From Herpetosiphon giganteus (GTDB taxonomy: Bacteria; Chloroflexota; Chloroflexia; Chloroflexales; Herpetosiphonaceae), in contig NZ_JAFBCZ010000018.1 of NCBI RefSeq assembly GCF_016907925.1, positions 64,001 to 123,933 of the forward strand: 59,933 bases of DNA, written 5' to 3'. The stretch's first letter is position 1. The number at the start of each line of letters is the position of its first letter. This document shows positions 2,017 to 59,632 of the stretch, one piece after another. The notes under the pieces were generated by a model. The model saw only the letters and a program-made list of their open reading frames with translations. It was not told the DNA's origin and made no database searches. The position numbers were made by a program, and so were the translations under genes.

Positions 2017-2151
2017 TCAGCAATAGAGCTTGGGGTTACTGCCTCAAGCTCTTTTTGCGCAACAATCAGCCCCTAAACCACGTACCTTTTGCAAGATTTT
2101 CTCCCAATTCTGGCCATTTTCTGCGATGTTCTTTTTGAGAAAGGGCTTATT

Positions 2152-3525
2152 ATGTTTGGCGTTTTGCGTGGGTGCTCGCCGCACCTCGATCAATCAACCC
2201 ATGCCGCTTGGTGGAGCCATATTTGTGGCATGTGCCTCACATTGCGCGATCAGCATGGCCAAGTTGCCCGCATCACCACCAATTACGATGCGGCCTTGCT
2301 TTCGGCGCTCTACGAAGCGCAACGCCCTGAACAAGGCGCACGGCGCACGAGTGTTTGTGCTTTGCGCAGCTTTCGGGCGCTCGATGTGGTAGCGGCTGAT
2401 GATCATGGGTCGCGCTATGCATCAGCGGTCAGTTTGCTGATGGCAGCAATTCGGCTGCGGGATAATGTGGCCGACCGCGATGGCTGGGCTGGCAAAGTGC
2501 CCTTCGTTGCCAATGGCGTGGCCAAGCGCTGGGATAAGCAGGCAGAGCAAACCGCCCGTGAATTGGGCTTTGAGCCAGCTTTATTGCGCGAACAAGCAGT
2601 TGCCCAAGCAGCAGTCGAAGCCTTGCCCAACGCCGATTTTTGCACCTATTCAGCGCCAACCGAGGCCGCTGTGGGCGCGGCCTTTCGGCATACCGCGATT
2701 TTGGCCAACCAGCCAAGCAACGCCGAGCCGCTGGAGCATATGGGCCGCATGTATGGGCGCATGATGTTGCTGCTCGATAGCTATGGCGATTTTGCCGAAG
2801 ATCAAGCGCGTGGCCATTTTAATGCCTTGAATGCTACGCCCCAAGCCGAATTGCGTACCACCGCGCATAAAATTTTCAACGATGCCTTGGCAAGCTTGCG
2901 CCAACACTGGCAACGCTTAACGCTTTTGCAAGCGCATTTGGTTGAAGTGCTGTTGCTGAATATGTTGCCAGCAATTGGCTCAAAAGCTTTTGGGGCTTGC
3001 AAACGCCATAGTTTGGTCTGCGCTACTGCATTGCCAGTGGCCGCCGCCTTGTTGCCAGCCATGGCCAGCGATTACGACGACGACCCTTCGCGCCGCGACC
3101 CCAACCGCGCCTACACTGGGCCAACACGAGCGCTCAAACCCCACGAAAACCCAGAGTATCAAGGCCAATATCCACAACAACCGCCCTACCAAGGCCAACA
3201 ATATCCTTCACAATATCCGCCACCGTACAATCCCAACGATCCAGGGATGTTACCACCTGGCACGTTGCCGCCAGCCAGCTCGCATCCAGCGCCGCAGGGC
3301 CATTATCAAGATAGCAAGCGCGATGTAGCCTTAGGTGCGGCCTTGTGTTGCTGCCAAAGCCGCCGCCATTCGCATCGCTCGCGCAGCCGCTGTTGTGATA
3401 GTGATTGCTGTGATTGTTGTCAATGTTCATGTTTATGTTGCGATGCAGCTGATCTATGCGAAGGCGGCTGTAGCTGTTGCGAATGCGGGAGTTGCTGCGA
3501 ATGCGGGAGTTGCTGCGATTGCTAA
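2152..3525 (+). CDS. Three-part protein: DUF5685-like N-domain (MFGVLRGC...HICGMC), Pro/Gln/Tyr-rich linker, and a 59-aa metallothionein-like tail with about 26 Cys
   Basis: Start moved to the MFGV methionine inside ORF 2089..3525. The N-terminal MFG-x-RxC...CGxC pattern matches my recollection of DUF5685. Tail reads CCCQSRRHSHRSRSRCCDSDCCDCCQCSCLCCDAADLCEGGCSCCECGSCCECGSCCDC. An 18-bp unit gaatgcgggagttgctgc is tandemly duplicated at 3478-3513. Confidence 0.55.
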   Translation: MFGVLRGCSPHLDQSTHAAWWSHICGMCLTLRDQHGQVARITTNYDAALLSALYEAQRPEQGARRTSVCALRSFRALDVVAADDHGSRYASAVSLLMAAIRLRDNVADRDGWAGKVPFVANGVAKRWDKQAEQTARELGFEPALLREQAVAQAAVEALPNADFCTYSAPTEAAVGAAFRHTAILANQPSNAEPLEHMGRMYGRMMLLLDSYGDFAEDQARGHFNALNATPQAELRTTAHKIFNDALASLRQHWQRLTLLQAHLVEVLLLNMLPAIGSKAFGACKRHSLVCATALPVAAALLPAMASDYDDDPSRRDPNRAYTGPTRALKPHENPEYQGQYPQQPPYQGQQYPSQYPPPYNPNDPGMLPPGTLPPASSHPAPQGHYQDSKRDVALGAALCCCQSRRHSHRSRSRCCDSDCCDCCQCSCLCCDAADLCEGGCSCCECGSCCECGSCCDC

Positions 3526-7103: not shown

Positions 7104-8183
7104 TTATTCGCTAATTTTCACGTTCAAGCGAGCAGCAATTTGGCTAACTTGGCCGGTAATTGCATCGGCACGATTTTGGGCTTCAGCACCAAGCAAATCG
7201 GCTTCTTCAGCGGTAAAGCGTTGGCCAGCTTGTTCTTTTTTGTGCACATCGGCAACAAAATCGCGCAGACCTTGTAAGTTGGTCTTGATTTGGCGATCTT
7301 GGTCGGCATCGAGCGTAGCAATTTTGGGGCTAAGGCTGTCGTAGACAACTTGCAAGCTGCCCAAAATATCGCCAATGTCGGCCAAACGTGAGATCGCCAC
7401 GAAATCGCGTTGGGTGCTGCTAGCGCCAGCAACAAAGCGCGAGTTCTTCCACGAATCGAAATATTCGTTCATGGTTGGCACCATCACGACCAAGGCGCTG
7501 AAGGCATCACTGTCGGTTGGTTCCCAGGCTTTGGCGGCGGTATCAAGCTCGGTTGCGGTGGCTTTGAGCTTTTGGGTGGCAGCCAACAACACATTCGCTT
7601 CTGGCAACGATTCGCCAAATTCAAGCGTGCCGTTGCCGTTGATATCGGCTTCAACATCGGTGATGCGGAAAGCATCGTAGGTGCCCCAGAGCGTGCTTTC
7701 GGTTACGCCAAACAAGTTGCCTGGTTTGGCAACCGTGCGACCATCAGCCAAGCTCAAATCGTAGTTGACCACGCTATCGCCGCCTTCTTCAGCCGAAGCG
7801 CCAGCGTCAAGCGTTACGTCGAAATCGGCCAAGCTGCTTACGCCTGCAACGATCCCTTCCATTTGTTCGTAGGTAGGGCTGGATTTCAACCAAGCTGCTT
7901 TGGCATCGTTCAAGGTCGTGCCAACCTCAGCTTGCTTGCTGCTCCAAAGCGTTGCATAATCGAAATTAGCAGCTTTTGCCAAATCATAATAGCGTTGGCT
8001 AGCGGTTTCCAAAGCGGTGGTACTGGTGATCAAATCGCCAGTTTTGCCCAAAAGATAGGTCTTGATTGCGCCAAGTTCGCCAGCGGCGGCGGCTTGGGTT
8101 GGTTGCGTGGTAGGAGCAGCTTCTTCAGCACCACAGCCGAAAAGCACTGCCACGAGCGTTAATGCACAAAGCCAACGATACAT
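7104..8183 (-). CDS. Imelysin/EfeO-like lipoprotein, iron-uptake associated (putative)
   Basis: Lipobox LFGC after start MYRWLCALTLVAVLFGCG (start moved from TTG at 8207 to ATG at 8183, RBS ggagg). Directly upstream and co-directional with the FTR1 permease, as in EfeU/EfeO systems. Family assignment is by overall resemblance only. Confidence 0.45.
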   Translation of the reverse strand: MYRWLCALTLVAVLFGCGAEEAAPTTQPTQAAAAGELGAIKTYLLGKTGDLITSTTALETASQRYYDLAKAANFDYATLWSSKQAEVGTTLNDAKAAWLKSSPTYEQMEGIVAGVSSLADFDVTLDAGASAEEGGDSVVNYDLSLADGRTVAKPGNLFGVTESTLWGTYDAFRITDVEADINGNGTLEFGESLPEANVLLAATQKLKATATELDTAAKAWEPTDSDAFSALVVMVPTMNEYFDSWKNSRFVAGASSTQRDFVAISRLADIGDILGSLQVVYDSLSPKIATLDADQDRQIKTNLQGLRDFVADVHKKEQAGQRFTAEEADLLGAEAQNRADAITGQVSQIAARLNVKISE

Positions 8184-8291
8184 GAGCCAGAAACCTCCAA
8201 ATGCCAAGGTTTAGTTAAATCATTTAGTACGGAAAAAACAGTTTTTATTGTGATTGGCAGAGTATACGTCGCGCTATTGGTTCTGTCAAAC

Positions 8292-8305
8292 GAGAATGAT
8301 TCTTA
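8292..8305. promoter_or_regulatory. Candidate Fur-family box (gAGAATgATTCTta, 7-1-7 inverted repeat)
   Basis: Palindrome in the divergent region between the imelysin-like/FTR1 operon (minus) and the CNNM gene (plus). About 10 of 14 positions match TGATAATnATTATCA. Confidence 0.25.
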
Positions 8306-8443
8306 GATTTAGCTGCCGAATCGAGCCTAAAGCTGCGTCAACGCGAGGCCAAGTCAATGGTACAATTTGTGATATTACAGCACAAGGAATCCCACTTAAG
8401 AACCTGTGCTGGAACATTCTATATTTGAGAAAGGAACAATTGA

Positions 8444-17538: not shown

Positions 17539-18033
17539 CTATTGGGTTGTATACGGCAAAAAGACGAAATTGGCAGGCACAACTGAGAAGGTGCGGGTGA
17601 TACTTTGGCCTTGGTAGGTGCTGCAATCATACTCAACATGCCAATTCCATGGCCCTAGTGCATCTGCTGGCAATGCTTGAGTTTGGGTATAAATGTAGGT
17701 AAACGGGACGATTGCTTGGCCTTGGCCCATAACGCCATTGAAAACATAATTCCGATCGCCAGGCCCATCGAGATGGATCGTATGACCACAGCGCGGGCCT
17801 TGCCAATTAAATGTCCATTTGTTGGGGGCAACTGGCTGTGGCAAAATGGCTTCGTTGGCTGGCGATTGCAGGGTAGGTTCTGGCCCGGGAGTTGCGGTTG
17901 GGCCGCCAAACGAGTAGGCAAGGCTGCTTGTAGTTGCTGAAGTGGCATGGTTCGGTGCAAGCAAGGTTCCGACGATGAACAGTCCGATCAGCGCTACCAC
18001 AACGATAGTGCCTGTGCGTTCGATCAAATTCAT
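17539..18033 (-). CDS. Hypothetical secreted/membrane-anchored protein
   Basis: N-terminal TM segment; RBS aggagg. No recognised domain. Confidence 0.5.
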   Translation of the reverse strand: MNLIERTGTIVVVALIGLFIVGTLLAPNHATSATTSSLAYSFGGPTATPGPEPTLQSPANEAILPQPVAPNKWTFNWQGPRCGHTIHLDGPGDRNYVFNGVMGQGQAIVPFTYIYTQTQALPADALGPWNWHVEYDCSTYQGQSITRTFSVVPANFVFLPYTTQ

Positions 18034-23503: not shown

Positions 23504-26110
23504 TTAGTTCTTCATTACTGCTGGCAAGTAGACCAAGGCTGGGCCTTCTGGCTCAGATTCTTCGGTACAAGCCTTCACGCTGACGTTATCGATCTTCCAG
23601 CCATCAGGCCGGCCAACTGAGCTGTCCGAGGCAAGACGGAAGCGGAACATCACGGTTTCGCCGTTGTAGGCTGCCAAATCAACCACGCTCTTGATCCAGT
23701 CTTGTGGGTCGCCACACCAAGCATCGCGGCCATTAAGTGGGTTCGATGCAGCAGTGATTGCGCCATTGTATGGGTCGGTCAACAAGGCAGCGTTAGGAAT
23801 TTGCTCCCATGCGGAGCCGCCATCGGTTGATACTTCAATCAATGCGCCATCATAACAGCCGCCATCGGTGCGATCTTCAATCGTTTGTGAGTTCCAGAAT
23901 TGCAGGGTATGGGTCACACCTTCGGTCAAGGTAATTGCTGGGGTCGTCAGCCATTGATCTGATGCTGTGGTCGGATCAATCGCCTTCATCCCTGAAGTGC
24001 CACCGTAACCAAATGCACCGTGTGCCCAGGTATTGCCAGTGCCACCGCTAACCCAGTTTGGATTGGTTTCGAAATTTTCTTCGAACGTAACCACAGTTTC
24101 GGTGCCAATTGAACAATCGCCAGGTGCTGCTTCAGTGGTAAAGCTGAAGATCGCGCTATTGGCGCTAACGCCACACGCATTGGCAGCGCGCACGCGCCAG
24201 TAGTGTTTGGTGTTGGTGCTCAAAGGAGCGCTGGTCAAGCTGGTCAACTCGGTCGTAGCCGTGTAAACCAAATTACTGAAGCTAGCATCGCTAGCAATTT
24301 CGAGCACATAGCTATCTGCGCCAGTAGCGCTTGACCAAGTGAAGGTTGGGGTATCGCTCACATCAGTAGCGTTGTTGGCTGGTGCGGTCAAGGTTGGTGC
24401 TGCGCTTGGAATGCCAGCCGAGATGCTGAGATCCAAATCAGCGGTGCGGGTGATGCTCGTGCTATCGGCATGCACCACAACCGTGTAATCACCAGCTGCG
24501 GCAGCAGTTACATTTCCAATGGTTAGTTGGCTGCTCAAGGTTGGTGAAATCACTGGGTTTGGCGTAAAGGTTGCGGTTGCGCCAGCAGGCAAGTTGCTTG
24601 CCGAAAGGTTTACCGGCTCGCTGAAGCCTGAAATCCAGTTTAAGTTAACCGTGGTTTGGCCCGAAGCTGGGGCACAAACTGCCAAGCTGGCAGGGCTGAG
24701 ATTCATGGTGAACGCAGGCGAACCACCATTACCATCAAGCACCAACGTCCCTGAGTTGGTTGGGTCAAGCCAATCCTTCAAGCGGCTTGCGCTGGTACCG
24801 CCACCATTCCATGATACAGAAACCCGACCATACCAGTCTGATAAATCGTTACCACAGGCAGCGCCGCCACCATGCAGTTGGCCAACGACACGGTGATTAG
24901 GGTCATACAAGGCTGAACCTGATGAACCGCGTTCGGTTGTGCCTAAATCCCAGTCGACAACCCGCACGTGGGTGCCATCGCCTGGCACTGTTTCCCCGCC
25001 ATAGCTGGTGGTTTGGGTCGCTTGGTTTTCAAAGCTGATCCGTTTTTCTTCAACACCTGGGTGGTGAATCGCCACAACGCTGGCAAAGTCGCCGCTTTGC
25101 GCATTCCAACCAGCCCAGAATGGTGAGTATTCGGTTGGAACTGCATCATCAAGCTCAACTAAGGTCATGTCTGATGGCGCATATTCGGCGCGTAAAATTG
25201 CCCCCGTCATGGTTGTATTGGGCTTGGGCAATGGCGTACCATTTTCCGGCGAGCCAACCGTGCGACACAAGGTTGATTCGTAGTTCCAATATGTCACCAT
25301 CGAAGCAGCATTGCCTGCGCTAATGCCACAGTGATCGGCGGTCAGGAAGTAGGGTTTTTGATCTTGGGCGGTGTTGTTGAGCAACGTCCCAGTACAGGTG
25401 TCCGCACCATTCAAGGTGTAGGCTGCAACTGAATTGATTTCTGAGCGCCAGTCGTCGCCTTCTGGACAAATAACGTCGACATTACACGAGCCTGATTTAT
25501 CGACCAAGAGATCACGCGGAACGCCGAAGCCACTAAAGCCACGGTTGATTGCGCTCAAGGTCAGGTCGGCAGTTGCAAACTCGCCACTATCAGCGCTATA
25601 TTCGATGATCATTTCATCGCCAGCGACAATTGGAGTCCACAATTGGCCATGATCTTCGTTATCAGCAGCACCATATGGCCCAATAACTGAGCGATAATCA
25701 GGGCTGTACATAAACAATTGGCCGCTCTTGGGCAGGTTATAGCGCGTATAGCCAAGGTTAATCGACAAGGCTTTGGGAGCGCTAATTCGCAAGCGAGCTA
25801 CCGTACGATTGCCAACGACTTCGATCGTCGATACTTGCTTGATGTCAAGCGAGGTTTGATAGTCTTTGGCAAAACGCATTGGGGTATTGCTTGGGCGTTT
25901 GGCTGCATCTGAGCGCTCTTTGGCCACATCAAGTTCTGGTACAGCAATCTGGGCTACTGTCGCCAAATCTTTCAAGCCTTGCGCCAATGCCAACGGTCGG
26001 TCGGACGTGCTGGCTTGATTCTGCGCAGCAGTGAACGGCACCTTCGCCCCAATTACCGATAATAAAACGGTAATCGCAAGTAAAGCAAATAGCCAACGGG
26101 ATCGAACCAT
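23504..26110 (-). CDS. Large secreted S1-family serine peptidase (lysyl-endopeptidase-like) with FN3-like and C-terminal beta-sandwich domains
   Basis: Signal peptide. TADHCG (catalytic His region) and GSSGSAL (catalytic Ser region). An FN3-like segment (PTFTWSSATGADSYVLEI). C-terminal domain ...MFRFRL...WKIDNVSV, ending VYLPAVMKN. Confidence 0.75.
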   Translation of the reverse strand: MVRSRWLFALLAITVLLSVIGAKVPFTAAQNQASTSDRPLALAQGLKDLATVAQIAVPELDVAKERSDAAKRPSNTPMRFAKDYQTSLDIKQVSTIEVVGNRTVARLRISAPKALSINLGYTRYNLPKSGQLFMYSPDYRSVIGPYGAADNEDHGQLWTPIVAGDEMIIEYSADSGEFATADLTLSAINRGFSGFGVPRDLLVDKSGSCNVDVICPEGDDWRSEINSVAAYTLNGADTCTGTLLNNTAQDQKPYFLTADHCGISAGNAASMVTYWNYESTLCRTVGSPENGTPLPKPNTTMTGAILRAEYAPSDMTLVELDDAVPTEYSPFWAGWNAQSGDFASVVAIHHPGVEEKRISFENQATQTTSYGGETVPGDGTHVRVVDWDLGTTERGSSGSALYDPNHRVVGQLHGGGAACGNDLSDWYGRVSVSWNGGGTSASRLKDWLDPTNSGTLVLDGNGGSPAFTMNLSPASLAVCAPASGQTTVNLNWISGFSEPVNLSASNLPAGATATFTPNPVISPTLSSQLTIGNVTAAAAGDYTVVVHADSTSITRTADLDLSISAGIPSAAPTLTAPANNATDVSDTPTFTWSSATGADSYVLEIASDASFSNLVYTATTELTSLTSAPLSTNTKHYWRVRAANACGVSANSAIFSFTTEAAPGDCSIGTETVVTFEENFETNPNWVSGGTGNTWAHGAFGYGGTSGMKAIDPTTASDQWLTTPAITLTEGVTHTLQFWNSQTIEDRTDGGCYDGALIEVSTDGGSAWEQIPNAALLTDPYNGAITAASNPLNGRDAWCGDPQDWIKSVVDLAAYNGETVMFRFRLASDSSVGRPDGWKIDNVSVKACTEESEPEGPALVYLPAVMKN

Positions 26111-30157: not shown

Positions 30158-30619
30158 ATGGCAGGCTACACAGTTAACGTCGAATGGGAGCGCAAGGCGG
30201 CTTCATTTAGCGACGGCAAGTATAGCCGCGCTCATCGTTGGATTTTCGATGGCGGCCAGGTTGTGCCAGGCTCTTCATCGCCGCATGTCGTGCCACTACC
30301 CTACTCCGACGAACAGGCGGTTGATCCAGAGGAAGCTTTTGTGGCCGCCTTATCAAGCTGTCATATGCTCTGGTTTTTATCAATCGTGGCCAAAGCAGGC
30401 TTTATCGTCGATCACTATGCCGATCAGGCGCTGGGCAAAATGGGCAAAAATAGCGCTGGCAAAATCGTCATGACCAAAGTAACCTTGCGTCCAAGCATAA
30501 TCTGGGTCGAGCCAGCACCCAGCGCCGAGCAAATCGAGCACTTCCATCATCAAGCCCATGAGCAATGCTTTCTGGCCAACTCAGTCTATACCGAAATTAG
30601 CATCGAGCCACAAGCCTAA
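30158..30619 (+). CDS. OsmC/Ohr family peroxiredoxin-like protein
   Basis: OsmC-like motif with conserved Cys (ALSSCHMLWFLS). Confidence 0.7.
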   Translation: MAGYTVNVEWERKAASFSDGKYSRAHRWIFDGGQVVPGSSSPHVVPLPYSDEQAVDPEEAFVAALSSCHMLWFLSIVAKAGFIVDHYADQALGKMGKNSAGKIVMTKVTLRPSIIWVEPAPSAEQIEHFHHQAHEQCFLANSVYTEISIEPQA

Positions 30620-32016
30620 CGCAACAGTTGATCGAACTCCTGAGCGGCTTCATGCATTTTGCCTTGTGGCTCGCTCAGGCTCCATTCGCGCCATTGCTGG
30701 CCAAACGGCTGATCAACAAACCAACACAAGGCCTGCACCTGCGGATTGGCGCTCACTTCGCGCAGCGCATTGCTCAGCCACCCGTTAGGATAATTCTCCA
30801 GCGGCGTTTGACCTTGCTCAGGGTGAAACGTGTTGGTAGCCGTGATATACACCGGACGATTGGCCATACTCGGGTAACGATTGATAAGCGCCAACCAATC
30901 GCGATAGACCCGAAACCCACGCTGGGCCTTGCCCGATTGCGCCAAATAGACATCGCGTAATGGCTCTTGGGCAGGGTCAGCGCTCTGTTCGGGCCAGCCA
31001 AACGTACTCACCGCAAAGCCATCGGGCGCAACATTAATTTGCTGCGCATGCTTCAAACGAATTGTTTGATCAAGCAATAGCAACAAACTATTAAAATAAT
31101 TAAGCCATGGTTGATTCAGCGGATCGGCCCAAGCGCCATCAGCATCGTTGCTCCAAGGCCGCACTGGCCCGACCAACAATTTGAGCTGCGGATTCAAGCC
31201 GCGCATGGTTTCAATCACATTATCGTGACGCTCAACTGCAACTCCATAACCAACCAGCATGCGCGCAACCCAAGCAGGATTTAGTGGTTCTTGGGTCAGG
31301 GTATTTTCGCCAAGGCTATTGTATCCATTGCCAATGCTATAGCCATAAACCGCCTGCAAGCGTTGATCATGGGCCAAACGCTGGCAAAAACGCAAAAAGA
31401 TCGCCAAGGCAGTTTCTTCATCATTCGGCGGCAAACTTTGGCCTTGGTCGTAGGCAACCCGAATAATCACCCGCAAACCAGCTTTATGCGCCGCCGCCAC
31501 CCGCGAGGCTAGGGCATCGATGCTCCATTGGCTCTCATCGGCCCGCAACGCATAGGCCAATTCAATCGTCCAAGCAGCGCGGCCATGCCAATCGCGCTCA
31601 GGATTGGCGAAGACAGCACCCAACAAGGTGCTTTGGCGTGGCATCGGCGTTGGCGCTGGCTGACCAAGCATCAAACTGCCACGCTCTTGGCAACCACGAT
31701 CACAATCGTGGTAAAAACGAATATCCGCTTGGGTCAAATTGCCTGTTGTGTTCCAGCGCCACGTCCATGGGTCGCTGCCAGTGGCAAATTGCTGATCGCG
31801 GCTCAAGGTTGCGCCATCAAGCGTCAAGGCCACATAGACCCAAGGCTGGTTATCGCGCACATAGACCCATTGCTGATTTTCGGCATCGCGCTCGAACCAA
31901 ATTTGAGGCCAGCCAGCTTGTTGGTTGGTCTGAAGCACTAAATTACCGTCGATTGGCAAGAGCCAGTAGATGATTGAACCAAGAACGAGTAGGCTAAGCC
32001 AACGCCATTTAGTCAT
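30616..32016 (-). CDS. Hypothetical membrane-anchored protein, possibly a TIM-barrel glycoside-hydrolase-like fold
   Basis: Start moved to MTKWRWLSLLVLGSIIYWLL to avoid overlap with the histidine-kinase gene. No confident family assignment. Confidence 0.35.
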   Translation of the reverse strand: MTKWRWLSLLVLGSIIYWLLPIDGNLVLQTNQQAGWPQIWFERDAENQQWVYVRDNQPWVYVALTLDGATLSRDQQFATGSDPWTWRWNTTGNLTQADIRFYHDCDRGCQERGSLMLGQPAPTPMPRQSTLLGAVFANPERDWHGRAAWTIELAYALRADESQWSIDALASRVAAAHKAGLRVIIRVAYDQGQSLPPNDEETALAIFLRFCQRLAHDQRLQAVYGYSIGNGYNSLGENTLTQEPLNPAWVARMLVGYGVAVERHDNVIETMRGLNPQLKLLVGPVRPWSNDADGAWADPLNQPWLNYFNSLLLLLDQTIRLKHAQQINVAPDGFAVSTFGWPEQSADPAQEPLRDVYLAQSGKAQRGFRVYRDWLALINRYPSMANRPVYITATNTFHPEQGQTPLENYPNGWLSNALREVSANPQVQALCWFVDQPFGQQWREWSLSEPQGKMHEAAQEFDQLLR

Positions 32017-40020: not shown

Positions 40021-41157
40021 TTAGCTGCCGAAGATTTTGCTCCAAAAGCCACGCTCTTTTTGCTCGAAATGATCCATGCCCATGGTCTCGCCAAGTTTCT
40101 GGAACAGTTCGCGCTGGTCTTCGTTGAGTTTGGTTGGCACGCGCACTTTAACCACAACCATTTGATCGCCGCGGCGGCCTAAGTTGCGCCCCGATGAATC
40201 AATGTAGGGCACGCCTTTGCCGCGCAAGGTAAAGACTGTCCCATCTTGGGTGCCCGCTGGCACATTCAACGGCTCGTCGCCATCAACGGTTGGCACATTC
40301 AGTTGCGCACCCAAGGCTGCTTGCACAATGTTAATTGGCAGTTGCAACAGAATATTGTTTTCTTCGCGCACAAAGAAATCGTGTGGTTGCACCCGTAAAT
40401 TAACATACAGATCGCCAGCAGAGCCGCCACTTGGTCCGCTATCGCCAGCCCCACCAATTCGAATCCGCATGCCATCATCAACCCCAGCTGGCACGGTCAA
40501 TTTGCGCTTGACGGTTTCGCGGACGCGGCCTTCGCCGCGACAGGTTTTACATGGAATCGGAATAATCACGCCACGCCCAGAACATTGATCACAGGTGGTG
40601 ACGGTGACCATATTCAGGAAGGTGCGCACCCGCATCTCGCCCGAACCTTGGCACTTGGGACAGCGCGTTGGCTCGGTGCCAGGTTCAGCGCCATTGCCAC
40701 CACAAGGCCCACACGATTCGAGCCGCCGATAATCAAGCTCTTTTTCGGTACCAAAAATCGCTTCTTCAAAGCTAATCACCAAATCGGCGCGTAAATCGGC
40801 ACCTTGGCGCGTGCCGCCACGGCTACCGCCACGCGCACCTTGGCCAAAGAAGGCATCGAAGATGGTGCTAAATGGATCGCCGCCAGCGCCACCAAAGCCC
40901 GAAAATGGGTCGAAGCCTTGGCCGCTGCTGCCAGCATGGCCAAATTGGTCGTACATGCGGCGCTTTTGATCGCTCGAAAGCACCTCGTAGGCTTCGGTTG
41001 CCTCTTTGAATTTGTTTTCGGCTTCTGCATTGCCGGGGTTGCGGTCGGGGTGATATTGCATGGCCAACTTGCGGTAGGCCTTTTTGATCTCGTCAGGTGA
41101 GGCACTTTTGCCCACACCTAGTACTTCGTAGTAGTCGCGTTTTGCCTCAGTTGCCAT
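40021..41157 (-). CDS. dnaJ: Molecular chaperone DnaJ
   Basis: J-domain with HPD, a G/F-rich region, and four CxxCxGxG zinc-finger repeats. Confidence 0.95.
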
Positions 41158-41164
41158 ACATATC

Positions 41165-41423
41165 CCTTATGTAGTAAGGATGAAGGATGAGGGATGAATT
41201 ATGAACATCCCCATCGCTCACACCTTGGTTAATCTTGTAGAAGGGTGAAGGATGAGGGATGAATTATGAACATCCGCACCATTCACACCTTAGGTTTGTA
41301 ATGTAAGTTCTGCGCTTGATGTCTAAATTACATATTCAATAATGAAGAATGAAATAACCTTTCTAAATTCATAATTCGTCTATTTCATCCTTCATCCTTC
41401 ATCCTTCATCCTTCATAATTTCG
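41165..41423. repeat. dnaK-dnaJ spacer filled with GGATGAA-family repeats: two ~50-bp direct repeats (gaaggatgagggatgaattatgaacatcc...cacacctt) and (ttcatcc)x4-ttcataatt
   Basis: R1 at about 41178-41230, R2 at about 41244-41295, heptamer run at 41385-41420. R1/R2 and the run are mutually inverted, so long hairpins are possible. Confidence 0.7.
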
Positions 41424-43280
41424 TTAGAGTTCTACTTCGTCGGCATTGCCTTGTTCTTGGCTGGAGGTTTCTGGCTCGATGCCAAAATCGGGTGCTGGCT
41501 TGAGCCGTTGCATTGCCACGCTCAATTCAGCAGTACGATTGTTGATCGCTTCCATATCGTCGCCATCAAGCACCGCCCGCAGTGCCGCAATCCGATCTTC
41601 GACTGTGTTACGAGCAGAGTAATCCACATTCTCATCGGCTTCGCGCAACATGCGATCGGCGGCGTAGATTACGCCATCGGCTTTGTTGCGAGTTGCAATT
41701 TGATCACGGCGGCGCGCATCACTATCGGCGTGATCTTCAGCATCGCGAATCATCGAGGCAATTTCATCATCGTTTAAGCCCGACGATGGCGTGATGGTGA
41801 TTTTTTGCTCTTTATTGGTTGCTTTGTCGGTAGCGCTAACATTAACAATCCCGTTGGCATCAATATCAAAAATAACTTCAATTTGCGGCACGCCACGCGG
41901 CGCGGCAGGAATGCCATCGAGGGTAAAACGGGCCAACGATTTGTTATGCCGAGCTTCGGCGCGCTCACCTTGCAACACATGAATTTCGACACTATTTTGA
42001 TTGTCGCTCGCGGTTGAGAAAATTTGCGAACGCTTGGTCGGAATCGTGGTGTTGCGATCAATCAGCGGGGTCATCACACCGCCATAGGTTTCGATGCCCA
42101 AGGTCAATGGCGTTACGTCAAGCAACAGCACATCGGTCACATCACCCGAAAGCACACCCGCCTGAATTGCCGCGCCAATTGCCACCACTTCATCGGGATT
42201 CACACCCTTGTGTGGATCTTTGCCAAAGAATTTTTTGACGGCGGCTTGCACAGCTGGCATGCGGGTTTGGCCACCAACCAAAATCACTTCATCAACTTCG
42301 CTGGCTTTCAAGCCAGCATCTTGCAAGGCGAGTTTGATTGGCTTGAGCGTGCGTTCGACCAAATCGCCAGTCAATTGCTCAAGTTTGGCGCGGGTCAAGG
42401 TGGTATTCAAGTGTTTGGGGCCGCTGGCATCGGCACTGATAAACGGCAGCGAAATATCGGTTTGCAACACGCTCGAAAGCTCTTGTTTGGCCTTTTCGGC
42501 AGCTTCCTTCAAGCGTTGCAAGGCCATGCGGTCGCTGCGCAAATCGATATTATTTTCGCGTTGGAATTCGCTTGCTAGCCAGTCGATAATCTTTTGATCG
42601 AAATCATCGCCGCCGAGGTGGGTATCGCCGTTGGTTGCGCGAACCTCAAACACCCCATCGCCAAGCTCCAAAATTGAAACGTCGAAGGTGCCACCACCAA
42701 GGTCATAGACGACAATTAATTCGTTGGTGTTGCGATCTAAGCCATAGGCCAAGGCGCTGGCGGTTGGCTCGTTGATGATGCGCAATACTTCGAGGCCAGC
42801 AATTTTGCCAGCATCTTTGGTCGCTTGGCGCTGCGAATCATCAAAATAGGCCGGAACCGTAATCACCGCTTGAGTGACAGGCTCGCCCAAATAGGCTTCG
42901 GCATCTGCTTTGAGTTTTTGCAAAATCATGGCCGAAACTTCTTGCGGCGAGTAATCGCGACCACCCATCAAAACCCGGGCATCGCCATTGGGCGCGCTGG
43001 TCATGCGATAAGGAATCAAATCCTTGTCGCGTTGAACGCTAGGATGATCTAATTTACGGCCAATAAAGCGCTTGACCGAATAAATTGTATTTTCGGGATT
43101 GGTGACCGATTGGCGCTTGGCCACCAAGCCAACCGTGCGTTCACCGTTTTTGCTCAAGGCGACAATTGAAGGCGTGGTGCGTGCGCCTTCGGCGTTGGGA
43201 ATAACCACCGCCTCGCCACCTTCCATGACCGCAACCACTGAATTGGTTGTTCCAAGGTCAATACCGATCACTTTACCCAT
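41424..43280 (-). CDS. dnaK: Molecular chaperone DnaK (Hsp70)
   Basis: Start at the [14 protein letters not shown] methionine. Hsp70 signatures throughout. Confidence 0.95.
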
Positions 43281-43374
43281 ATACTTATTGCTCCACAGAC
43301 AGCGACAAAGCATCGTTAAGCGACAGCCACGAACGGCAGCGATGCCACTTAAACGATGCTTTGCCTAGGTGCTC

Positions 43375-43890
43375 CTACTTGCCGACTTTGACGACCGTTG
43401 GACGCAAGACCCGTTCGCCGAGCTTGTAGCCGCGGCGCAATTCGGCCACGACTTTGTTTGATTGGGCTTCGTCGCCTTCTTCAAACATAATTGCTTCGTG
43501 AACATTGGGGTCGAATTCTTCATCAACGGCGGGAATTGGTTGCAGGCCAGCGCCCTCAAGCACCGTTTCAAATTTACGTTGTACTTGTTTAACGCCGCCA
43601 ATCCACTGATTGTTTTCAATTTCAGCGGGAATTTGGCCCATCGCCAAGAGCAGGTCGTCGAGCACTGGAAGCAATTTCAACATTAAACCAGCGCTAGCAT
43701 TGCGAATCAACTCCTCGCGTTCGCTTTCGGTGCGGCGTTTGTAATTTTTGAAATCGGCAATTGCGCGCATCCAGTTGGTTTTATGTTCTTCAACTTCGCG
43801 TTCGAGCGTGGCGATCCGTTCGTTCAGGCTTTCTGCATCGCCTTCAGGATTGGTATCGTCAGTTGATTGTGCTTGCACTTCTTCCGTCAT
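43375..43890 (-). CDS. grpE: Nucleotide exchange factor GrpE
   Basis: GrpE-like coiled coil and C-terminal beta domain. RBS ggaggtatggag. Confidence 0.85.
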   Translation of the reverse strand: MTEEVQAQSTDDTNPEGDAESLNERIATLEREVEEHKTNWMRAIADFKNYKRRTESEREELIRNASAGLMLKLLPVLDDLLLAMGQIPAEIENNQWIGGVKQVQRKFETVLEGAGLQPIPAVDEEFDPNVHEAIMFEEGDEAQSNKVVAELRRGYKLGERVLRPTVVKVGK

Positions 43891-43940
43891 GAGAACTCCA
43901 TACCTCCGTAAAGATCAAATTTGTATTATCACCGAATTAG

Positions 43941-44033
43941 GTTTCCTCACTCCCGCCCTCGCGCACCCGTGAGTCAAAAATCCTGTGCTCCCCTCGCCCG
44001 CTCTGTGGGAGAGGGGTTGGGGGTGAGGGAACC
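43941..44033. repeat. REP-like palindromic element (cccctcgcccgctctgtgggagagggg + ttgggggtgaggg)
   Basis: Same family as 4355-4488. Lies between hrcA and grpE. Confidence 0.6.
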
Positions 44034-44042
44034 TTATTCAAC

Positions 44043-45107
44043 CTATTCTGTTGGTTCTATTTTGCGTTCGCCGTATAAATCGCCCATCAGATCGCTCATG
44101 ACCCCAGCGATATAGCGCACGCTAGAGATTGAGCGCGGATAGGCCATGCGGCGCGGCCCCAAAACCCCGACAACTCCGGCAACATCGCCATTGACTCCGT
44201 AGCGCGAAAGAATCACACTATAATCGCGCAACTCATCGCGGCTATGCTCGCCGCCGATAATCACCTGCACGCCATCGGAGGCCAAGGCTTGGGGAATGAG
44301 CGATTCGAGCATCGTGCCGCCTTCGAGAATCGAAAGCACCTCGCGCACCCGCGTCACCTGGCCAAACTCTGGTTGATGCAGCATTTCGAGCAAGCCATCG
44401 TGATGAATTAATTCGTTGACATGCTCCTCGAATTGTTGCATTGCCCGCGCCACGCTCTCGATCACCAGCATTTCAAAACTGCTGAGCGGAGGTTGAGCCA
44501 CAGGCTGCGTCAGCGCAAGCGCCGCAATCGCCTTGGCCGAAGCTTCATGACAAAGCTCATTGATCCGGCCAGCGATTCTGCTAAGCTGCTCTTGGGTGGT
44601 GTTGGGGTCGGCGGGCAGCGTTTGTTGCTTAACCGAGCCTTCGTGCAACACCAACACCATCAACACCAAGGCATCGTTGATCGCGATCAATTCAATATGT
44701 TTAAAGCGACTTTCATAGGCGCGCGGGGGGGTAACCACGGCTGCGGTTTGGGCAGTTCGGGCCAAAACCGCTGCTGCCAAATGAATCCATTGGTTCAATT
44801 CCGAGCGGATTTGATAGAACTGATGTTGGATCATGCGCTGTTCTTGGGTGGAAAGCGCCGCCCGATCCATCAAATTTTCGACAAAGAAGCGATAGCCAGC
44901 ATCGGTGGGCAAGCGCCCAGCCGACGTATGCAAATGGGTCAAAAGGCCAGCATCTTCTAAGGCCGCCATTTCGTTGCGGACAGTCGCCGAGCTAACCCCC
45001 AAACTCCGCGCAAGATCCTGCGAGGCGACTGGAGTTGCCGTATCGATGTATTGTTGGATAACTGCCTTAAGCACCCGTCGTCGCCGCTCATTGAGTTCTA
45101 GATTCAT
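44043..45107 (-). CDS. hrcA: Heat-inducible transcription repressor HrcA
   Basis: N-terminal winged-HTH ([28 protein letters not shown]). Heads the grpE-dnaK-dnaJ operon, with a CIRCE operator upstream. Confidence 0.9.
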
Positions 45108-45527: not shown

Positions 45528-48500
45528 ATGCGTTCGATGCGTATGCTGCGTTTGCTAGCAGCATTAATTGTGGTGAGCATGCTTCCATTGAGCCGAAGCA
45601 ACGCCCAAACTCCAACCACCAATGCCCCAATCAATCGCTTGCTCAACCAAGGAGCCAATGTTGCTCGCCACAGCCAAACAGGCTATGTGCGTTGGATTGG
45701 CGCGGCAGCAGGCACAACCCTCGATCAGCCAAGCGGCCTGAATCGGGCAGATACGGTTAATGTTGCCAACGCCTATGTGGCCGAATATGGTAGCTTGTTT
45801 GGCTTAGCCCAAGCCAGCGATGCAGCAATTGCAAAAACGACCACCACCCAAGATGGTCGCCAAGTTGTGCGTTATCAACAACGCTACCAAGGCGTGCCAG
45901 TAGTAGCTGGTGAATTGCAAGTGCAATTGAACCAAGCAGGCGAATTGCTCAGTATGAATGGCGAAGTGTTGCCAAATCTCAATCTGAGCACCAGCGCCAA
46001 ACTGAGCCAAGCCAACGCTAGCAGCATTGCCCAAAACTATGTTGCCGCCAAATACGATGCCAACACTGCCAACTTGAATGTGAGCAACAACGAGCTTTCA
46101 ATTTACAACCCAGCCTTGTTGGGTGGCACTGGTGTTCAAAAAAATAGCTTGGTTTGGTTAGTCACGATTGAATCAACCAGCAGCGAGCCAATTCGCGAGT
46201 ATGTGTTTGTCAATGCCCAGTCGGGCGAGATTAGCTTAGCCTTCAACCAAATTGGCTATGCCAAAAATCGCTTCGTCTGCGACGACGACAATGTGATTGA
46301 TACCGACAACACTCCCAATAATAACTGTGATGAAGCCAGCGAATATGTGCGCACCGAAGGCTCAGCCCCAAGTGGCGATGCAGATATCGATGCCGCCTAC
46401 GATTATTCGGGCGACACCTACGACTTCTACAACTTGTTCTTTGGCCGCAACAGCATCGACAACAACGGCATGAGCTTGATTTCATTGGTCAAGCATTGCC
46501 CACCTGGTGCTGGTTGCCCTTACCAAAACGCCTTCTGGAATGGTCGCCAAATGACCTATGGTGAAGGGTTTGCTGCTGCCGACGACGTGGTTGCCCACGA
46601 ATTGTCGCACGGCGTAACCGAATATACCTCAAACCTGTTCTACTACTTCCAATCAGGCGCAATCAACGAAGCCATGTCGGATATTTTCGGCGAATTCATG
46701 GATCAAACCAACGGTAGCGCCGACGATGATACAAGCACTCGTTGGATTATGGGCGAAGATTTGGGCGGATTGCGTGATATGCAAGATCCACCGCAAGGCG
46801 GCCAGCCTGATAGCATGCTCAGCCCATTGTATGTGCTTGACGCAAGCTTGGCTGACAACGGTGGCGTGCACACCAACAGCGGGATTGCCAACAAGGCTGC
46901 CTATCTGTTGACCGATGGCGACAGCTTCAACGGCCAAACGATCAACTCGATTGGCATCACCAAAACTGCCCATTTATTCTATGAAACCCAAATTAGCTCG
47001 TTGACTTCGGGCAGCGACTATGCTGATTTAGCGTCGGCTTTGCGCCAAGCGTGTAGCAGCCTAACTGGCAGCCATGGGATTACGGCAGCTGATTGTGCTG
47101 AAGTTAACAAAACCATTTTGGCCACCGAAATGGATTTGCAGCCAACCAACGCACCAGCTCCTGACATCAAGGCCTGTAGCCCTGGCCAAACTCAGGTTAA
47201 TGTTTTCGCCGATGATTTTGAAGCCTTGCCAAACACCAAATGGACTGCAAGCGCCTTGAGCGGTAGCAACGAAAGCTGGACGACCAATCCTGCTCAAATC
47301 GTTGGCGCGTATGCAACCAGCGGCAATGGTTCGGCCACCAACATCAATGGCGTGTATGGTGTGAATCAAGATGTTGAAGAATCGGCCTTCAGCCAAAATG
47401 CAGCTGTAACGGTTCCAGCCAATGGCTTTGCCTACTTCCGCCATGCCTACGATTTCTACTCACCAATCGATGCGGGCGTGGTTGAATATAGCACCAACAA
47501 CGGCAACAGCTGGCAATCGGCAGCAAACTTGTTTAGCTACAACGGGCCAAACAACATTGCTGCAGGCGGCGAATTTGCAGGCGAGCAAGCCTATGTTGGC
47601 AACAGCAATGGCTACACTGCTAGCCGCTTGAATCTCTCAAGCTTGGCTGGTCAATCAGTTCGCTTCCGCTTCAAAGTGGCGCTTGGCGACAACCCAACTC
47701 CAAGCCGCTCGGTTACCTGGTCGATTGACGATTTCGCAATCTACAGCTGTAGCGGCGCAGTAACGCCAGCAGCACCAAGCCTGTTCCTCACCAGCGATGT
47801 CTTGGCCCAACAAGGCAAGATTAGCAGTGCTGTGATTGGGACGGCCTCTGATGATATTGATTTGGCTGGTTCGTTGGCCGTGAGCGTTGCTGGCGCGCCA
47901 GCAGGCTTGAACGTCAACGTCGCCAACCAAGCAGGCATCTTGAAAGCGACGGTCAATTGTGCTTGTGACACCGAAGTTGGCAGCTACCCAATTACGGTAA
48001 CCGTCCGCGACAGCGGCAACCGCACCGCTAGCCAAGTATTCAATGTTGAAGTTGAAACCGCTGGCCAAAGCGTGATTGACGGTGGCTTTGAGCTCGGCGA
48101 GGGCTGGGAAGCCTTCTCAAGCTCGTTTGGCGACGTTTCACCGCCATTGTGTTTCTTGCCTGGCTGCGCTGGCGAGCCACGCACTGGCAATAGCTGGTTG
48201 CGCTTTGGCGCACGCGCTGGCAGCACCGAAACCGCGTTTGCAGAGCAAACCTTCACCTCAACTGCGAGCGATGCAACGCTTGAATTCTATCTCTCGATCT
48301 ATGCCCATAACGGGCGTGGCACGCAAGATTACGTCAAGCTTAGCATTGATGGCGAAGAAGTGTTCCGCGTCACCGATGCCAACACCGAATACGACAATGG
48401 CTATGCCAAAGTGACGATTCCATTGACCGACCTTGAAGCAGGCGCACATGTCTTGCGCTTCGATTCAGTCAATAATTCGACTACACGCAACATTCGCTTT

Positions 48501-48581
48501 AGCATTGATGACATCAGTTTGATTACTGAAACCAATCAATGCCGTGGCGTTGGCGTGTATCTGCCTGCCGTCACCAAATAA
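45528..48581 (+). CDS. Large secreted M4 (thermolysin-family) zinc metalloprotease with propeptide and ~500-aa C-terminal beta-sandwich/Ig-like extensions
   Basis: Signal peptide. HEXXH VVAHELSHGVTEY and the thermolysin motif GAINEAMSDIFGE. C-terminal domain ...VRFRFKV...WSIDDFAIY. Ends GVGVYLPAVTK. Confidence 0.85.
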   Translation: MRSMRMLRLLAALIVVSMLPLSRSNAQTPTTNAPINRLLNQGANVARHSQTGYVRWIGAAAGTTLDQPSGLNRADTVNVANAYVAEYGSLFGLAQASDAAIAKTTTTQDGRQVVRYQQRYQGVPVVAGELQVQLNQAGELLSMNGEVLPNLNLSTSAKLSQANASSIAQNYVAAKYDANTANLNVSNNELSIYNPALLGGTGVQKNSLVWLVTIESTSSEPIREYVFVNAQSGEISLAFNQIGYAKNRFVCDDDNVIDTDNTPNNNCDEASEYVRTEGSAPSGDADIDAAYDYSGDTYDFYNLFFGRNSIDNNGMSLISLVKHCPPGAGCPYQNAFWNGRQMTYGEGFAAADDVVAHELSHGVTEYTSNLFYYFQSGAINEAMSDIFGEFMDQTNGSADDDTSTRWIMGEDLGGLRDMQDPPQGGQPDSMLSPLYVLDASLADNGGVHTNSGIANKAAYLLTDGDSFNGQTINSIGITKTAHLFYETQISSLTSGSDYADLASALRQACSSLTGSHGITAADCAEVNKTILATEMDLQPTNAPAPDIKACSPGQTQVNVFADDFEALPNTKWTASALSGSNESWTTNPAQIVGAYATSGNGSATNINGVYGVNQDVEESAFSQNAAVTVPANGFAYFRHAYDFYSPIDAGVVEYSTNNGNSWQSAANLFSYNGPNNIAAGGEFAGEQAYVGNSNGYTASRLNLSSLAGQSVRFRFKVALGDNPTPSRSVTWSIDDFAIYSCSGAVTPAAPSLFLTSDVLAQQGKISSAVIGTASDDIDLAGSLAVSVAGAPAGLNVNVANQAGILKATVNCACDTEVGSYPITVTVRDSGNRTASQVFNVEVETAGQSVIDGGFELGEGWEAFSSSFGDVSPPLCFLPGCAGEPRTGNSWLRFGARAGSTETAFAEQTFTSTASDATLEFYLSIYAHNGRGTQDYVKLSIDGEEVFRVTDANTEYDNGYAKVTIPLTDLEAGAHVLRFDSVNNSTTRNIRFSIDDISLITETNQCRGVGVYLPAVTK

Positions 48582-51034: not shown

Positions 51035-51055
51035 AGCCTTCTCCCTCTCTGGCTC

Positions 51056-53440: not shown

Positions 53441-53520
53441 CAATACCTCTCGTAGGGTTGCTCTCATTGGAGCATACTATCGAACCTTGCCCTAATCATA
53501 GCAAACTATGCCAAGTTGGC

Positions 53521-53862
53521 TTAGCGAGGATACACATAACGCACCCTGCTTCTAGGCGTGGCTTCGAGTTGGTGTTGCCGAAGAAGCACTAGCGCTGTGC
53601 GAGCTTGAGCACTTGGCGTGGCATGAGGAGTTGTGCTTGGAAATAGAACAATCGTGGCGGTCGGGCTGGGTTTAATCGTGGGCGAGGCAGCAAGCGCCAC
53701 GGCTGTTGGCTGGTTGGTAGGGCTAGGTTAGGCTTGATCAACAGGGCTTAAACCAAACAGCATACGCACAACTAAGCCAAGCCCAATTACTGTGCAACTC
53801 AGCAGCAAAACCCGCCAATGTCGCCCTAGATTGCGAGCCTTGGCGGCAGAACGATCATCCAT
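53521..53862 (-). pseudogene. Decayed paralog remnant: N-terminal anchor (MDDRSAAKARNLGRHWRVLLLSCTVIGLGLVV...), in-frame TAA, linker (PTAVALAASPTIKPSPTATIVLFP) joined directly to a C-terminal ...RVRYVYPR stop. The ~2.3-kb ectodomain is deleted.
   Basis: Single reading frame with an internal TAA at 53728-53730. Matches N-terminus, linker and C-terminus of the 54024 and 56948 genes (compare DRNWWRVLPVLGALGLLGLMLVL, TAVALLGSATPSIQPSPTLIAAPFP, YYVYPR). Confidence 0.6.
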
Positions 53863-54023
53863 CAGCAAACCCTCTCACTCGTGCTTGACCATGGGGAATA
53901 GTACGATCAAGCCTAGCGCACACGTCATGGGTTGCACAATGATAGCAAGCTGATGCCAAGCTGAGTCAAGGCTGGGGATCATAACCTGTCATCCGATCCC
54001 CAACCCCCGATCCCTATATCCAA

Positions 54024-56708: not shown

Positions 56709-56947
56709 CGATATTGCTCCTCTATTCAATCATGAGTGGCTATCGGCACTAGGCTATAGGCTATTGGCTATGGGCTATTGGCGTTGGGAACCGCGAAGCG
56801 CACGAAGGACGCGAAGGTTCGTTTTTAGCCACAAATTGCCCGAAGCATAGAGTGTCGCCACAGCTTCATACTCCCAATAGCCTTCAGCCTAGAGCCGATA
56901 GCCTAACTCCTCCCCCCTGATCCCCGATCCCCGATCCCTACGTACAA

Positions 56948-59611: not shown

Positions 59612-59632
59612 CGATATTGCTCCTCTATTCAA

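Follow-up and report, generated by a model that had tools for sequence, protein, structure and literature searches.

The YLP-box, a short C-terminal tail on secreted proteases of Herpetosiphon giganteus and a putative sorting motif of exported Chloroflexota proteins

The stretch of the Herpetosiphon giganteus genome analysed here (59,933 nucleotides, positions 64,001 to 123,933 of contig NZ_JAFBCZ010000018.1; hereafter the window) encodes two secreted proteases, an S1 enzyme and an M4 metalloprotease, whose catalytic domains are unrelated and which carry the same ending, VYLPAVMKN in S1 and VYLPAVTK in M4. Judged from its sequence, this tail belongs to the already curated class of putative sorting motifs named YLP-box, to which the window contributes divergent members. 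The YLP-box has the consensus h-[YF]-L-P-h-h-x-[RK], followed by zero to two residues, and is present on hundreds of exported proteins of Chloroflexota. Most likely it serves to sort proteins after their export or to retain them at the cell envelope, a reading that we favour with modest confidence.

The S1 protease terminates with KACTEESEPEGPALVYLPAVMKN and the M4 protease with NQCRGVGVYLPAVTK. In an earlier note on this DNA the common ending was taken for a heptapeptide; the identity stands, and the shared string is eight residues long (VYLPAV[MT]K), followed in S1 by an additional N. The match of the two tails is far beyond chance. Their codons, gtc tac ttg cca gca gta atg aag in S1 and gtg tat ctg cct gcc gtc acc aaa in M4, differ at synonymous sites, so the identity is held at the level of the peptide; the same differences led us to reject a repeat in the DNA, or a mobile element, at the ends of the two genes. 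Selection thus acts on the tail peptide. When species-representative genomes were scanned with the pattern, contig 7 of Herpetosiphon sp. NSE202 proved to encode orthologues of both proteases, whose tails are identical to those of the window, and the S1 orthologue was also found in H. geysericola. In the 9-residue tail, the three S1 orthologues differ by synonymous changes only, while the 11-residue linker shows four amino-acid changes; the M4 tail of strain NSE202 contains one synonymous change.

In S1 the tail is separated from a beta-sandwich domain by a Glu/Pro-rich spacer, as the earlier note had described (Table 1). Residues 676-845 score 42.3 bits against the choice-of-anchor J model NF038128, the cut-off of which is 30. 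In an AlphaFold2 (AF2) model the sandwich has a predicted local distance difference test (pLDDT) value above 90, and the linker is coil, with pLDDT falling from 67 to 54 over residues 192-209 of the C-terminal fragment. The tail, both in this model and in that of a C25 peptidase described below, is a low-confidence coil following a confident domain (pLDDT ~55-67), which fits a peptide that is read by something else; the models suggest that it is not part of a fold. The two proteases had also been thought to share a terminal domain. However, the terminal sandwich of S1 matches an internal domain of M4, so the same type of domain occurs in both proteins and there is no common terminal domain. 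These two domains align to one and the same part of the NCBIfam model myxo_dep_M36. The final 170 residues of M4 produced zero matches in a Pfam scan, and their BLASTP similarity to the S1 terminus is weak (E=0.007), with the tag itself inside the alignment. No hydrophobic segment follows the tail in either protease, and just three or four residues lie beyond the proline. The absence of a transmembrane (TM) segment after the motif, on account of which the earlier note had set the tail apart from the classical LPXTG, PEP-CTERM and type IX secretion system (T9SS) C-terminal domain signals, is thereby confirmed. A terminator-like hairpin is located 3' of both genes. The window encodes a third tagged protein, a small exported one with a more divergent tail.

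Table 1. Tagged proteins of the window, their domains and their tails (positions in the window).
Feature	Position	Strand	Remarks
S1/trypsin-like (lysyl-endopeptidase-like) secreted protease, 868 aa	23504..26110	-	N-terminal signal peptide, trypsin-like domain
YLP-box tail VYLPAVMKN, final 9 codons of S1	23507..23533	-	
S1 Glu/Pro-rich linker TEESEPEGPAL	23534..23566	-	joins beta-sandwich to tail
S1 InhA-like MAM / choice-of-anchor J beta-sandwich, aa 676-850	23561..24085	-	PF20773, NF038128
M4 thermolysin-family secreted metalloprotease, 1017 aa	45528..48581	+	signal peptide, FTP propeptide motif, M4 catalytic domains
M4 internal MAM-like domain, aa 550-745	47175..47762	+	true homologue of the S1 terminal domain (BLASTP E=1e-14)
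M4 terminal domain, ~aa 847-1005, starting DGGFELGEGWEAF	48066..48542	+	no family match
YLP-box tail VYLPAVTK, final 8 codons of M4	48555..48578	+	
Small exported protein, 164 aa	17539..18033	-	N-terminal signal/TM segment, no Pfam family
Divergent YLP-box tail VFLPYTTQ, final 8 codons of the 164-aa protein	17542..17565	-	

NCBIfam release 20 contains two very small models, NF050076.1 (‘sort_motif_YLP’) and NF053834.1 (‘ultrashort_CTERM’), with the common description ‘YLP-box putative sorting motif-containing protein’, and the motif is therefore not new, contrary to what had been supposed. At curated cut-offs of 15 and 10 bits, respectively, canonical Chloroflexota tails pass both models: KVYLPLVLRNKR scores 18.5 and 15.9 bits, and EVYLPLVRK 16.2 and 16.9 bits. 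Among the Herpetosiphon proteins, Haur_5046 (tail RVWLPLVGRE) passes NF050076 with 15.8 bits, while most other Herpetosiphon tails have no reported match to either model. Since the models miss these variants, annotation under-counts YLP-box proteins. The S1 and M4 tails conform to h-[YF]-L-P-h-h-x-[RK] within the last ~10 residues, and the tagged window proteins are exported proteins of a member of Chloroflexota. The tails of the window and most other Herpetosiphon tails represent a divergent local flavour, with A, W or Y at position +3 relative to the aromatic residue and with K or Q in place of R.

The frequency of the motif in Herpetosiphon was assessed in 530 kb of sequence, comprising the window and plasmids pHAU01 and pHAU02 of H. 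aurantiacus DSM 785 (440 kb). A relaxed pattern, fitted post hoc when examples were already known, matched 16 times in 557 open reading frames (ORFs), 12 of these matches being located 7-9 residues from the C-terminal end; in ORFs with shuffled residues the same pattern yielded a mean of 1.55 matches in total and 0.01 at the C-terminus. ORFs of 100 residues or more from the window, both plasmids and three orthologue loci (L060, L097 and L114) contain 74 [YF]LP tripeptides, and in 12 of these the aromatic residue is exactly 7-9 residues from the end. The tail is present on ~10 of the 302 plasmid genes (~3%). The bearers include two FG-GAP propeller proteins (ends AYLPLTTRGE and AYLPWAGRE), two paralogues with long TPTNTP linkers (FLPWAQK), two C25 peptidases (VWLPLVGRE and VWLPLVGWE), Haur_5036 (VYIPIIKR) and Haur_5066 (IYGPAVMR). 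An unannotated small ORF of ~95 residues with a signal peptide, located in the gap between Haur_5099 and Haur_5100 of pHAU01 (locus L124, ~30420-30713), ends in RYTTFLPAAIRGD and is probably a missed gene with a YLP-box. A signal peptide or signal anchor is present in the bearers inspected at the N-terminus, except that Haur_5036 is ambiguous and Haur_5046 is apparently truncated at this end. A tblastn search of the plasmids with the S1 C-terminus returned distant M4 and M36 proteins only. The tail is a genuine modular tag, combined with unrelated catalytic and adhesin-like domains, found after flexible linkers on exported proteins and strongly enriched at their extreme C-termini. The enrichment is large and clearly reaches beyond the two proteases that the earlier note had cited.

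Outside Herpetosiphon, the YLP-box is abundant in Anaerolineae, Caldilineae and other Chloroflexota. When the S1 terminal domain (positions 23507-24133 of the window) was used as the query of a full HMMER search, 4903 homologues were recovered, and tails were counted in 146 new best representatives of these. At least 47 of the 146 end in a YLP-box, and the named bearers all belong to Chloroflexota. The aromatic residue is 7 (22 tails), 8 (12) or 9 (7) residues from the end. In the logo of the 47 tails, position -1 is L, I or V; position 0 is Y or F (44/47), followed by L (41/47) and P; position +3 is L, I, V or A, position +4 is I, V or L, and position +6 is R or K (33/46). VYLPAVMKN and VYLPAVTK fit all of these positions, A at +3 being found in 5 of 47 tails and K at +6 in 11 of 46. 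About a dozen of the 146 homologues, from other phyla, have at the position of the YLP-box a sorting tail composed of a motif, a TM segment and RRR. A separate short tail without TM segment, xIFxDGFESGDTSAWSxxxP, terminates ~45 of the 146 (P0003, P0005, P0010, P0034, P0040, P0051, P0056 and others). Its named members belong to Acidobacteriota (Holophagae and Thermoanaerobaculales), no tail-specific NCBIfam match was obtained, and it looks like an Acidobacteriota counterpart of the YLP-box.

In metagenomes, an unbiased scan for [YF]LPLVxR, in which no stop codon was required, gave 86 matches in long ORFs. In 20 of them the aromatic residue is 7-13 residues from the stop (exactly 7 in 12), versus ~2 expected under the assumption of uniform placement, and the bulk of the remaining matches are conserved internal motifs in cytoplasmic enzymes. 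Further boxes were found on neighbouring genes of the same metagenome loci. A genome scan for VYLPAVxK gave at least 120 matches; most of those listed are chance matches in other phyla, and at least three are independent examples from Chloroflexota. A profile built from 14 tails (hmmbuild/hmmsearch) assigns true members E-values of ~1e3-1e4 at a database size of 5.8 billion proteins. The tagged cargo comprises proteases of families S1, S8, M4, M36, C25 and M23, and FG-GAP, Ig-like, Calx-beta, beta-helix and DUF11 proteins.

These observations are consistent with a signal that acts after export. A protein with a YLP-box would be exported by Sec or Tat with the tail at the end of a flexible linker, a dedicated partner in the cell envelope would then read the tail, and the tagged protein would stay on the surface of the cell and not diffuse off. 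The reading of the tail may consist of non-covalent docking, or of cleavage and covalent transfer. The S1 and M4 proteases of this predatory filamentous bacterium would be cell-associated lytic enzymes. The position of the tail argues for such a role, as homologues from other phyla have TM-containing sorting tails where the YLP-box sits. The name ‘putative sorting motif’ given by the NCBI curators indicates that the same reading was reached independently.

To our knowledge, all of the well-understood bacterial C-terminal sorting signals need a membrane-spanning segment or a folded domain. The YLP-box resembles the LPXTG/sortase system in being a C-terminal signal of exported surface proteins, with an L-P core, a preceding Pro/Thr-rich linker and modular use over cargo families. 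However, LPXTG signals possess a TM helix, a basic tail and a scissile Thr-Gly bond, none of which is present in the YLP-box; in place of the LPXTG pentapeptide the window tails read LPAVM and LPAVT, and no sortase associated with them was found in the window or, by BLASTP with the Haur_5062 sortase, elsewhere in the ORFs searched, the one known cluster being that of Haur_5062 on a plasmid. The T9SS of Bacteroidota, with its peptidase PorU, likewise handles large proteases and adhesins, and the PorU-like C25 peptidases of Chloroflexota bear the YLP-box themselves. Unlike the box of 7-9 residues, the T9SS signal is a folded domain of ~80 residues that needs an outer-membrane translocon. Neither S1 nor M4 matched an NCBIfam or Pfam model of this C-terminal domain, a fold of ~70-100 residues, and their tail is 8-9 residues of coil. 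We know of no T9SS in Chloroflexota, the envelope of which is generally described as monoderm. The PEP-CTERM/exosortase, GlyGly-CTERM/rhombosortase and MYXO-CTERM/myxosortase systems are similar in that their signals occupy the same place after choice-of-anchor domains, are restricted to particular phyla and occur in many copies per genome. They differ in being tripartite (motif, TM helix and basic segment) and in being cut by intramembrane enzymes, while the YLP-box has no TM helix. S1 and M4 have no TM helix after the motif and no match to these models; the resemblance is confined to the upstream domain, which is similar to parts of the M36 models for myxosortase- and rhombosortase-dependent proteins. 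Ultrashort C-terminal motifs on a disordered tether that are read by a partner include the C-terminal peptide of FtsZ (DIPxFLR) and the eukaryotic CaaX box. The likeness is in logic only, as these two motifs are cytoplasmic and, unlike the YLP-box, have known partners.

A possible reader of the tail is found among the bearers. C25 peptidases are the commonest catalytic family in a scan of 48 tagged proteins, 34 of them from pattern-scan loci or the plasmids, accounting for six. The Chloroflexota bearers score up to 243 bits (E=5.7e-72) against the NCBIfam model ‘T9SS sortase PorU’, which has an equivalog cut-off of 420, and their closest structure is PorU (PDB 6ZA2, E=2.8e-33). All 122 aligned sequences of the family share the putative catalytic His and Cys, and a YLP-box ends 86 of its 120 best members. 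PorU cleaves off the T9SS signal, attaches the cargo and bears that signal itself; since it both processes and carries its own signal, the Chloroflexota C25 family is a candidate reader of the YLP-box. A PorU-like C25 cysteine peptidase is our preferred candidate for a cleaving enzyme, although the proposal is tentative and its probability low. Lower still is that of the fuller scheme, in which the YLP-box would be the signal of a T9SS-independent, sortase-like system, with the PorU-like C25 enzyme transferring cargo to a cell-wall or exopolysaccharide acceptor in Chloroflexota.

The C25 gene of Chloroflexota belongs to a conserved cassette. An HprK-related kinase (ScmC-like) is encoded directly upstream of the C25 gene in all three of the genomes inspected (L251 8414-12904, L252 7516-14762 and L253 3112-14144; also L006 1258-1920), and genes for a PqqD-like peptide-binding protein, a radical-SAM/SPASM maturase, a PF14907 nucleotidyltransferase and a SipW/archaeal-type signal peptidase I occur nearby. 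In L251 and L253, small ORFs upstream of the kinase contain the pattern ..PP(R/Q)(I/V)(T/S)(T/S)YTD..LE..GP.. and resemble precursors of ribosomally synthesised and post-translationally modified peptides. In L252, the C25 cassette lies inside an exopolysaccharide locus that also encodes a CPBP (Rce1-like) protease.

Several observations weigh against sorting by a dedicated partner. No candidate sorting enzyme, including the sortase-, rhomboid- or exosortase-like gene whose co-occurrence had been envisaged, was found within the window, and no Pfam family recurs in the 106 neighbour ORFs of tagged genes at 28 loci. About half of the tails stop exactly at R/K, so that nothing is left beyond this residue to serve as a leaving group. 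The tails of C25 peptidases track phylum (P0294 has an Acidobacteria-type tail and P0278 a TM tail), and for this reason the PorU-like proteins could equally be mere cargo; nor does the AF2 model of the C25 peptidase show any sign of the tail docking in cis onto the enzyme. S1, M4 and the 164-residue protein are unmatched by NF050076 and NF053834, whether searched at full length (E<=0.1) or as tails alone (E<=10). No paper on the YLP-box was found when searching by peptide string, by name or by sorting in Chloroflexota and Herpetosiphon; the matches to peptide strings concerned frog temporins and myeloperoxidase peptides only, and the literature on ScmC/PqqD and on the Herpetosiphon secretome provided nothing usable.

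A further difficulty is posed by copies that are not terminal, which a strict C-terminal signal does not predict. Among ~35 tag-like matches from the metagenomes, ~10 (~30%) are internal or N-terminal. In L220 (~1400-2770) and L232 (~7270-8380) the box is N-terminal, preceded by a Tat or Sec signal and followed by a Pro/Thr linker; in L166, L181, L190 and L219 it lies between domains, L166 (5619-7793) having one internal and one terminal copy; and in L158 (768-4448) it is followed, ~35 residues further on, by a TM helix and a basic tail. Two loci of the genome scan, L021 and L065, behave similarly. In view of these copies, we describe the YLP-box as a short linear motif that marks the boundaries of linkers in exported proteins and is mostly, but not always, placed at the very end. 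After the internal boxes of L190 and L219, stretches occur that begin with NGGFE and NGNFE and which by eye, in the unaligned sequences, resemble the start of the M4 terminal domain.

The same distribution is compatible with the box being a processing site only, cut by a dedicated or a general extracellular endopeptidase and having no role in localisation. Such cutting could release proteins from N-terminal signal anchors, remove accessory C-terminal domains or trim the tail. Placement at linker and domain boundaries, including the N-terminal and internal spots before Pro/Thr/Ser linkers, favours it, as do the conserved R/K at +6, the many bearers that are proteases with pro-domains, and the presence of Arg/Lys-specific C25 and lysyl-endopeptidase-like enzymes among them. 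However, mostly 0-2 residues follow the R/K (none in 22 of 47 tails), and a cut there would be nearly neutral, yet the tail is highly conserved and tightly limited in length. In addition, the box occurs on proteins that are not enzymes, such as FG-GAP, Ig-like and small proteins. We regard a processing site without any sorting function as unlikely.

Alternatively, there might be no dedicated partner at all, and the hydrophobic-plus-basic tail could itself stick to wall polysaccharide or the membrane surface, or block carboxypeptidases. The extreme shortness of the motif, with few invariant positions (L and P) and interchangeable F and Y, would agree with this, as would the lack of a linked gene among the 106 neighbour ORFs and the flexibility of the tail in both AF2 models. 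On general biophysical grounds, however, seven residues are too few for stable binding to membrane or glycan. The order aromatic-L-P-two aliphatic-any-basic is kept across classes of the phylum, which points to a folded binding site, and the motif is phylum-specific, with homologous cargo of other phyla using signals that are read by enzymes. A self-sufficient tail is thus rather improbable, and somewhat more so than a pure processing site.

That the tail is a degenerate LPXTG-type signal for a classical sortase is very unlikely. The L-P core and tails such as LPYTT or LPLTT recall LPXTG, and Haur_5066, an 808-residue DUF11-type protein ending in IYGPAVMR, belongs to a sortase gene cluster of pHAU01 (Haur_5062 to Haur_5066, L123 27504-32528). 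Nevertheless, the TM segment and charged anchor are absent, the Thr position is mostly occupied by I, V or L, and no Gly follows. The substrate of this cluster, Haur_5065, which neighbours Haur_5066, has a different-looking, classical sortase signal composed of FPVTA, a TM segment and RRLA. There is no sortase in the window, and BLASTP with the Haur_5062 sortase revealed no other in the ORFs of the window, the plasmids, the metagenome scan and the Chloroflexota loci. Chance, recent duplication or a DNA element repeated across stop codons, conceivable as long as just two proteins were cited, has a negligible probability given the synonymous differences, the unrelated flanks and catalytic domains, the enrichment over shuffled sequences and by position, and the hundreds of independent examples.

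The window has some further genes of note. Directly upstream of the divergently oriented M4 gene lies a heat-shock row on the minus strand (40021-45107). It starts in transcription order with hrcA (44043-45107), named by eye from its sequence, followed by putative grpE (43375-43914), dnaK (41424-43364) and dnaJ (40021-41166), assigned from their position and length. On the other side of the M4 gene, the region 48719-59632 (minus strand) contains four ORFs of 771-901 residues without a Pfam family, each with an N-terminal hydrophobic segment resembling a signal or membrane anchor; two of them, almost identical at the N-terminus, are close paralogues, and three have the ending Y(V/L)YP(R/Q). These ends, which the earlier note had likened to the tail of the proteases, are not the same tag, because R or Q directly follows the proline and the proteins have N-terminal membrane anchors and are paralogues of each other. 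YVYPR, YLYPR and YVYPQP (51056-59632) were accordingly rejected as YLP-boxes and represent a separate ending inherited by descent. A DUF5685 protein with a Cys-rich C-terminal run, CEGGCSCCECGSCCECGSCCDC, is encoded at 2077-3525 on the plus strand.

If the YLP-box does act in post-export sorting or retention, a signal of 7-9 residues with neither TM segment nor fold would be a different way of retaining proteins at the surface. Much of what a major but little-studied phylum exports in the way of hydrolases and adhesin-like proteins is apparently marked by it. Should the C25 enzymes prove to be its readers, PorU-type attachment chemistry would extend beyond Bacteroidota and beyond diderm envelopes. 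The relaxed pattern and the PorU-like lead provide concrete handles for experiments. In Herpetosiphon, a predator that kills other bacteria by lysis, the YLP-box would then determine if the proteases work on the surface of the cell or away from it.

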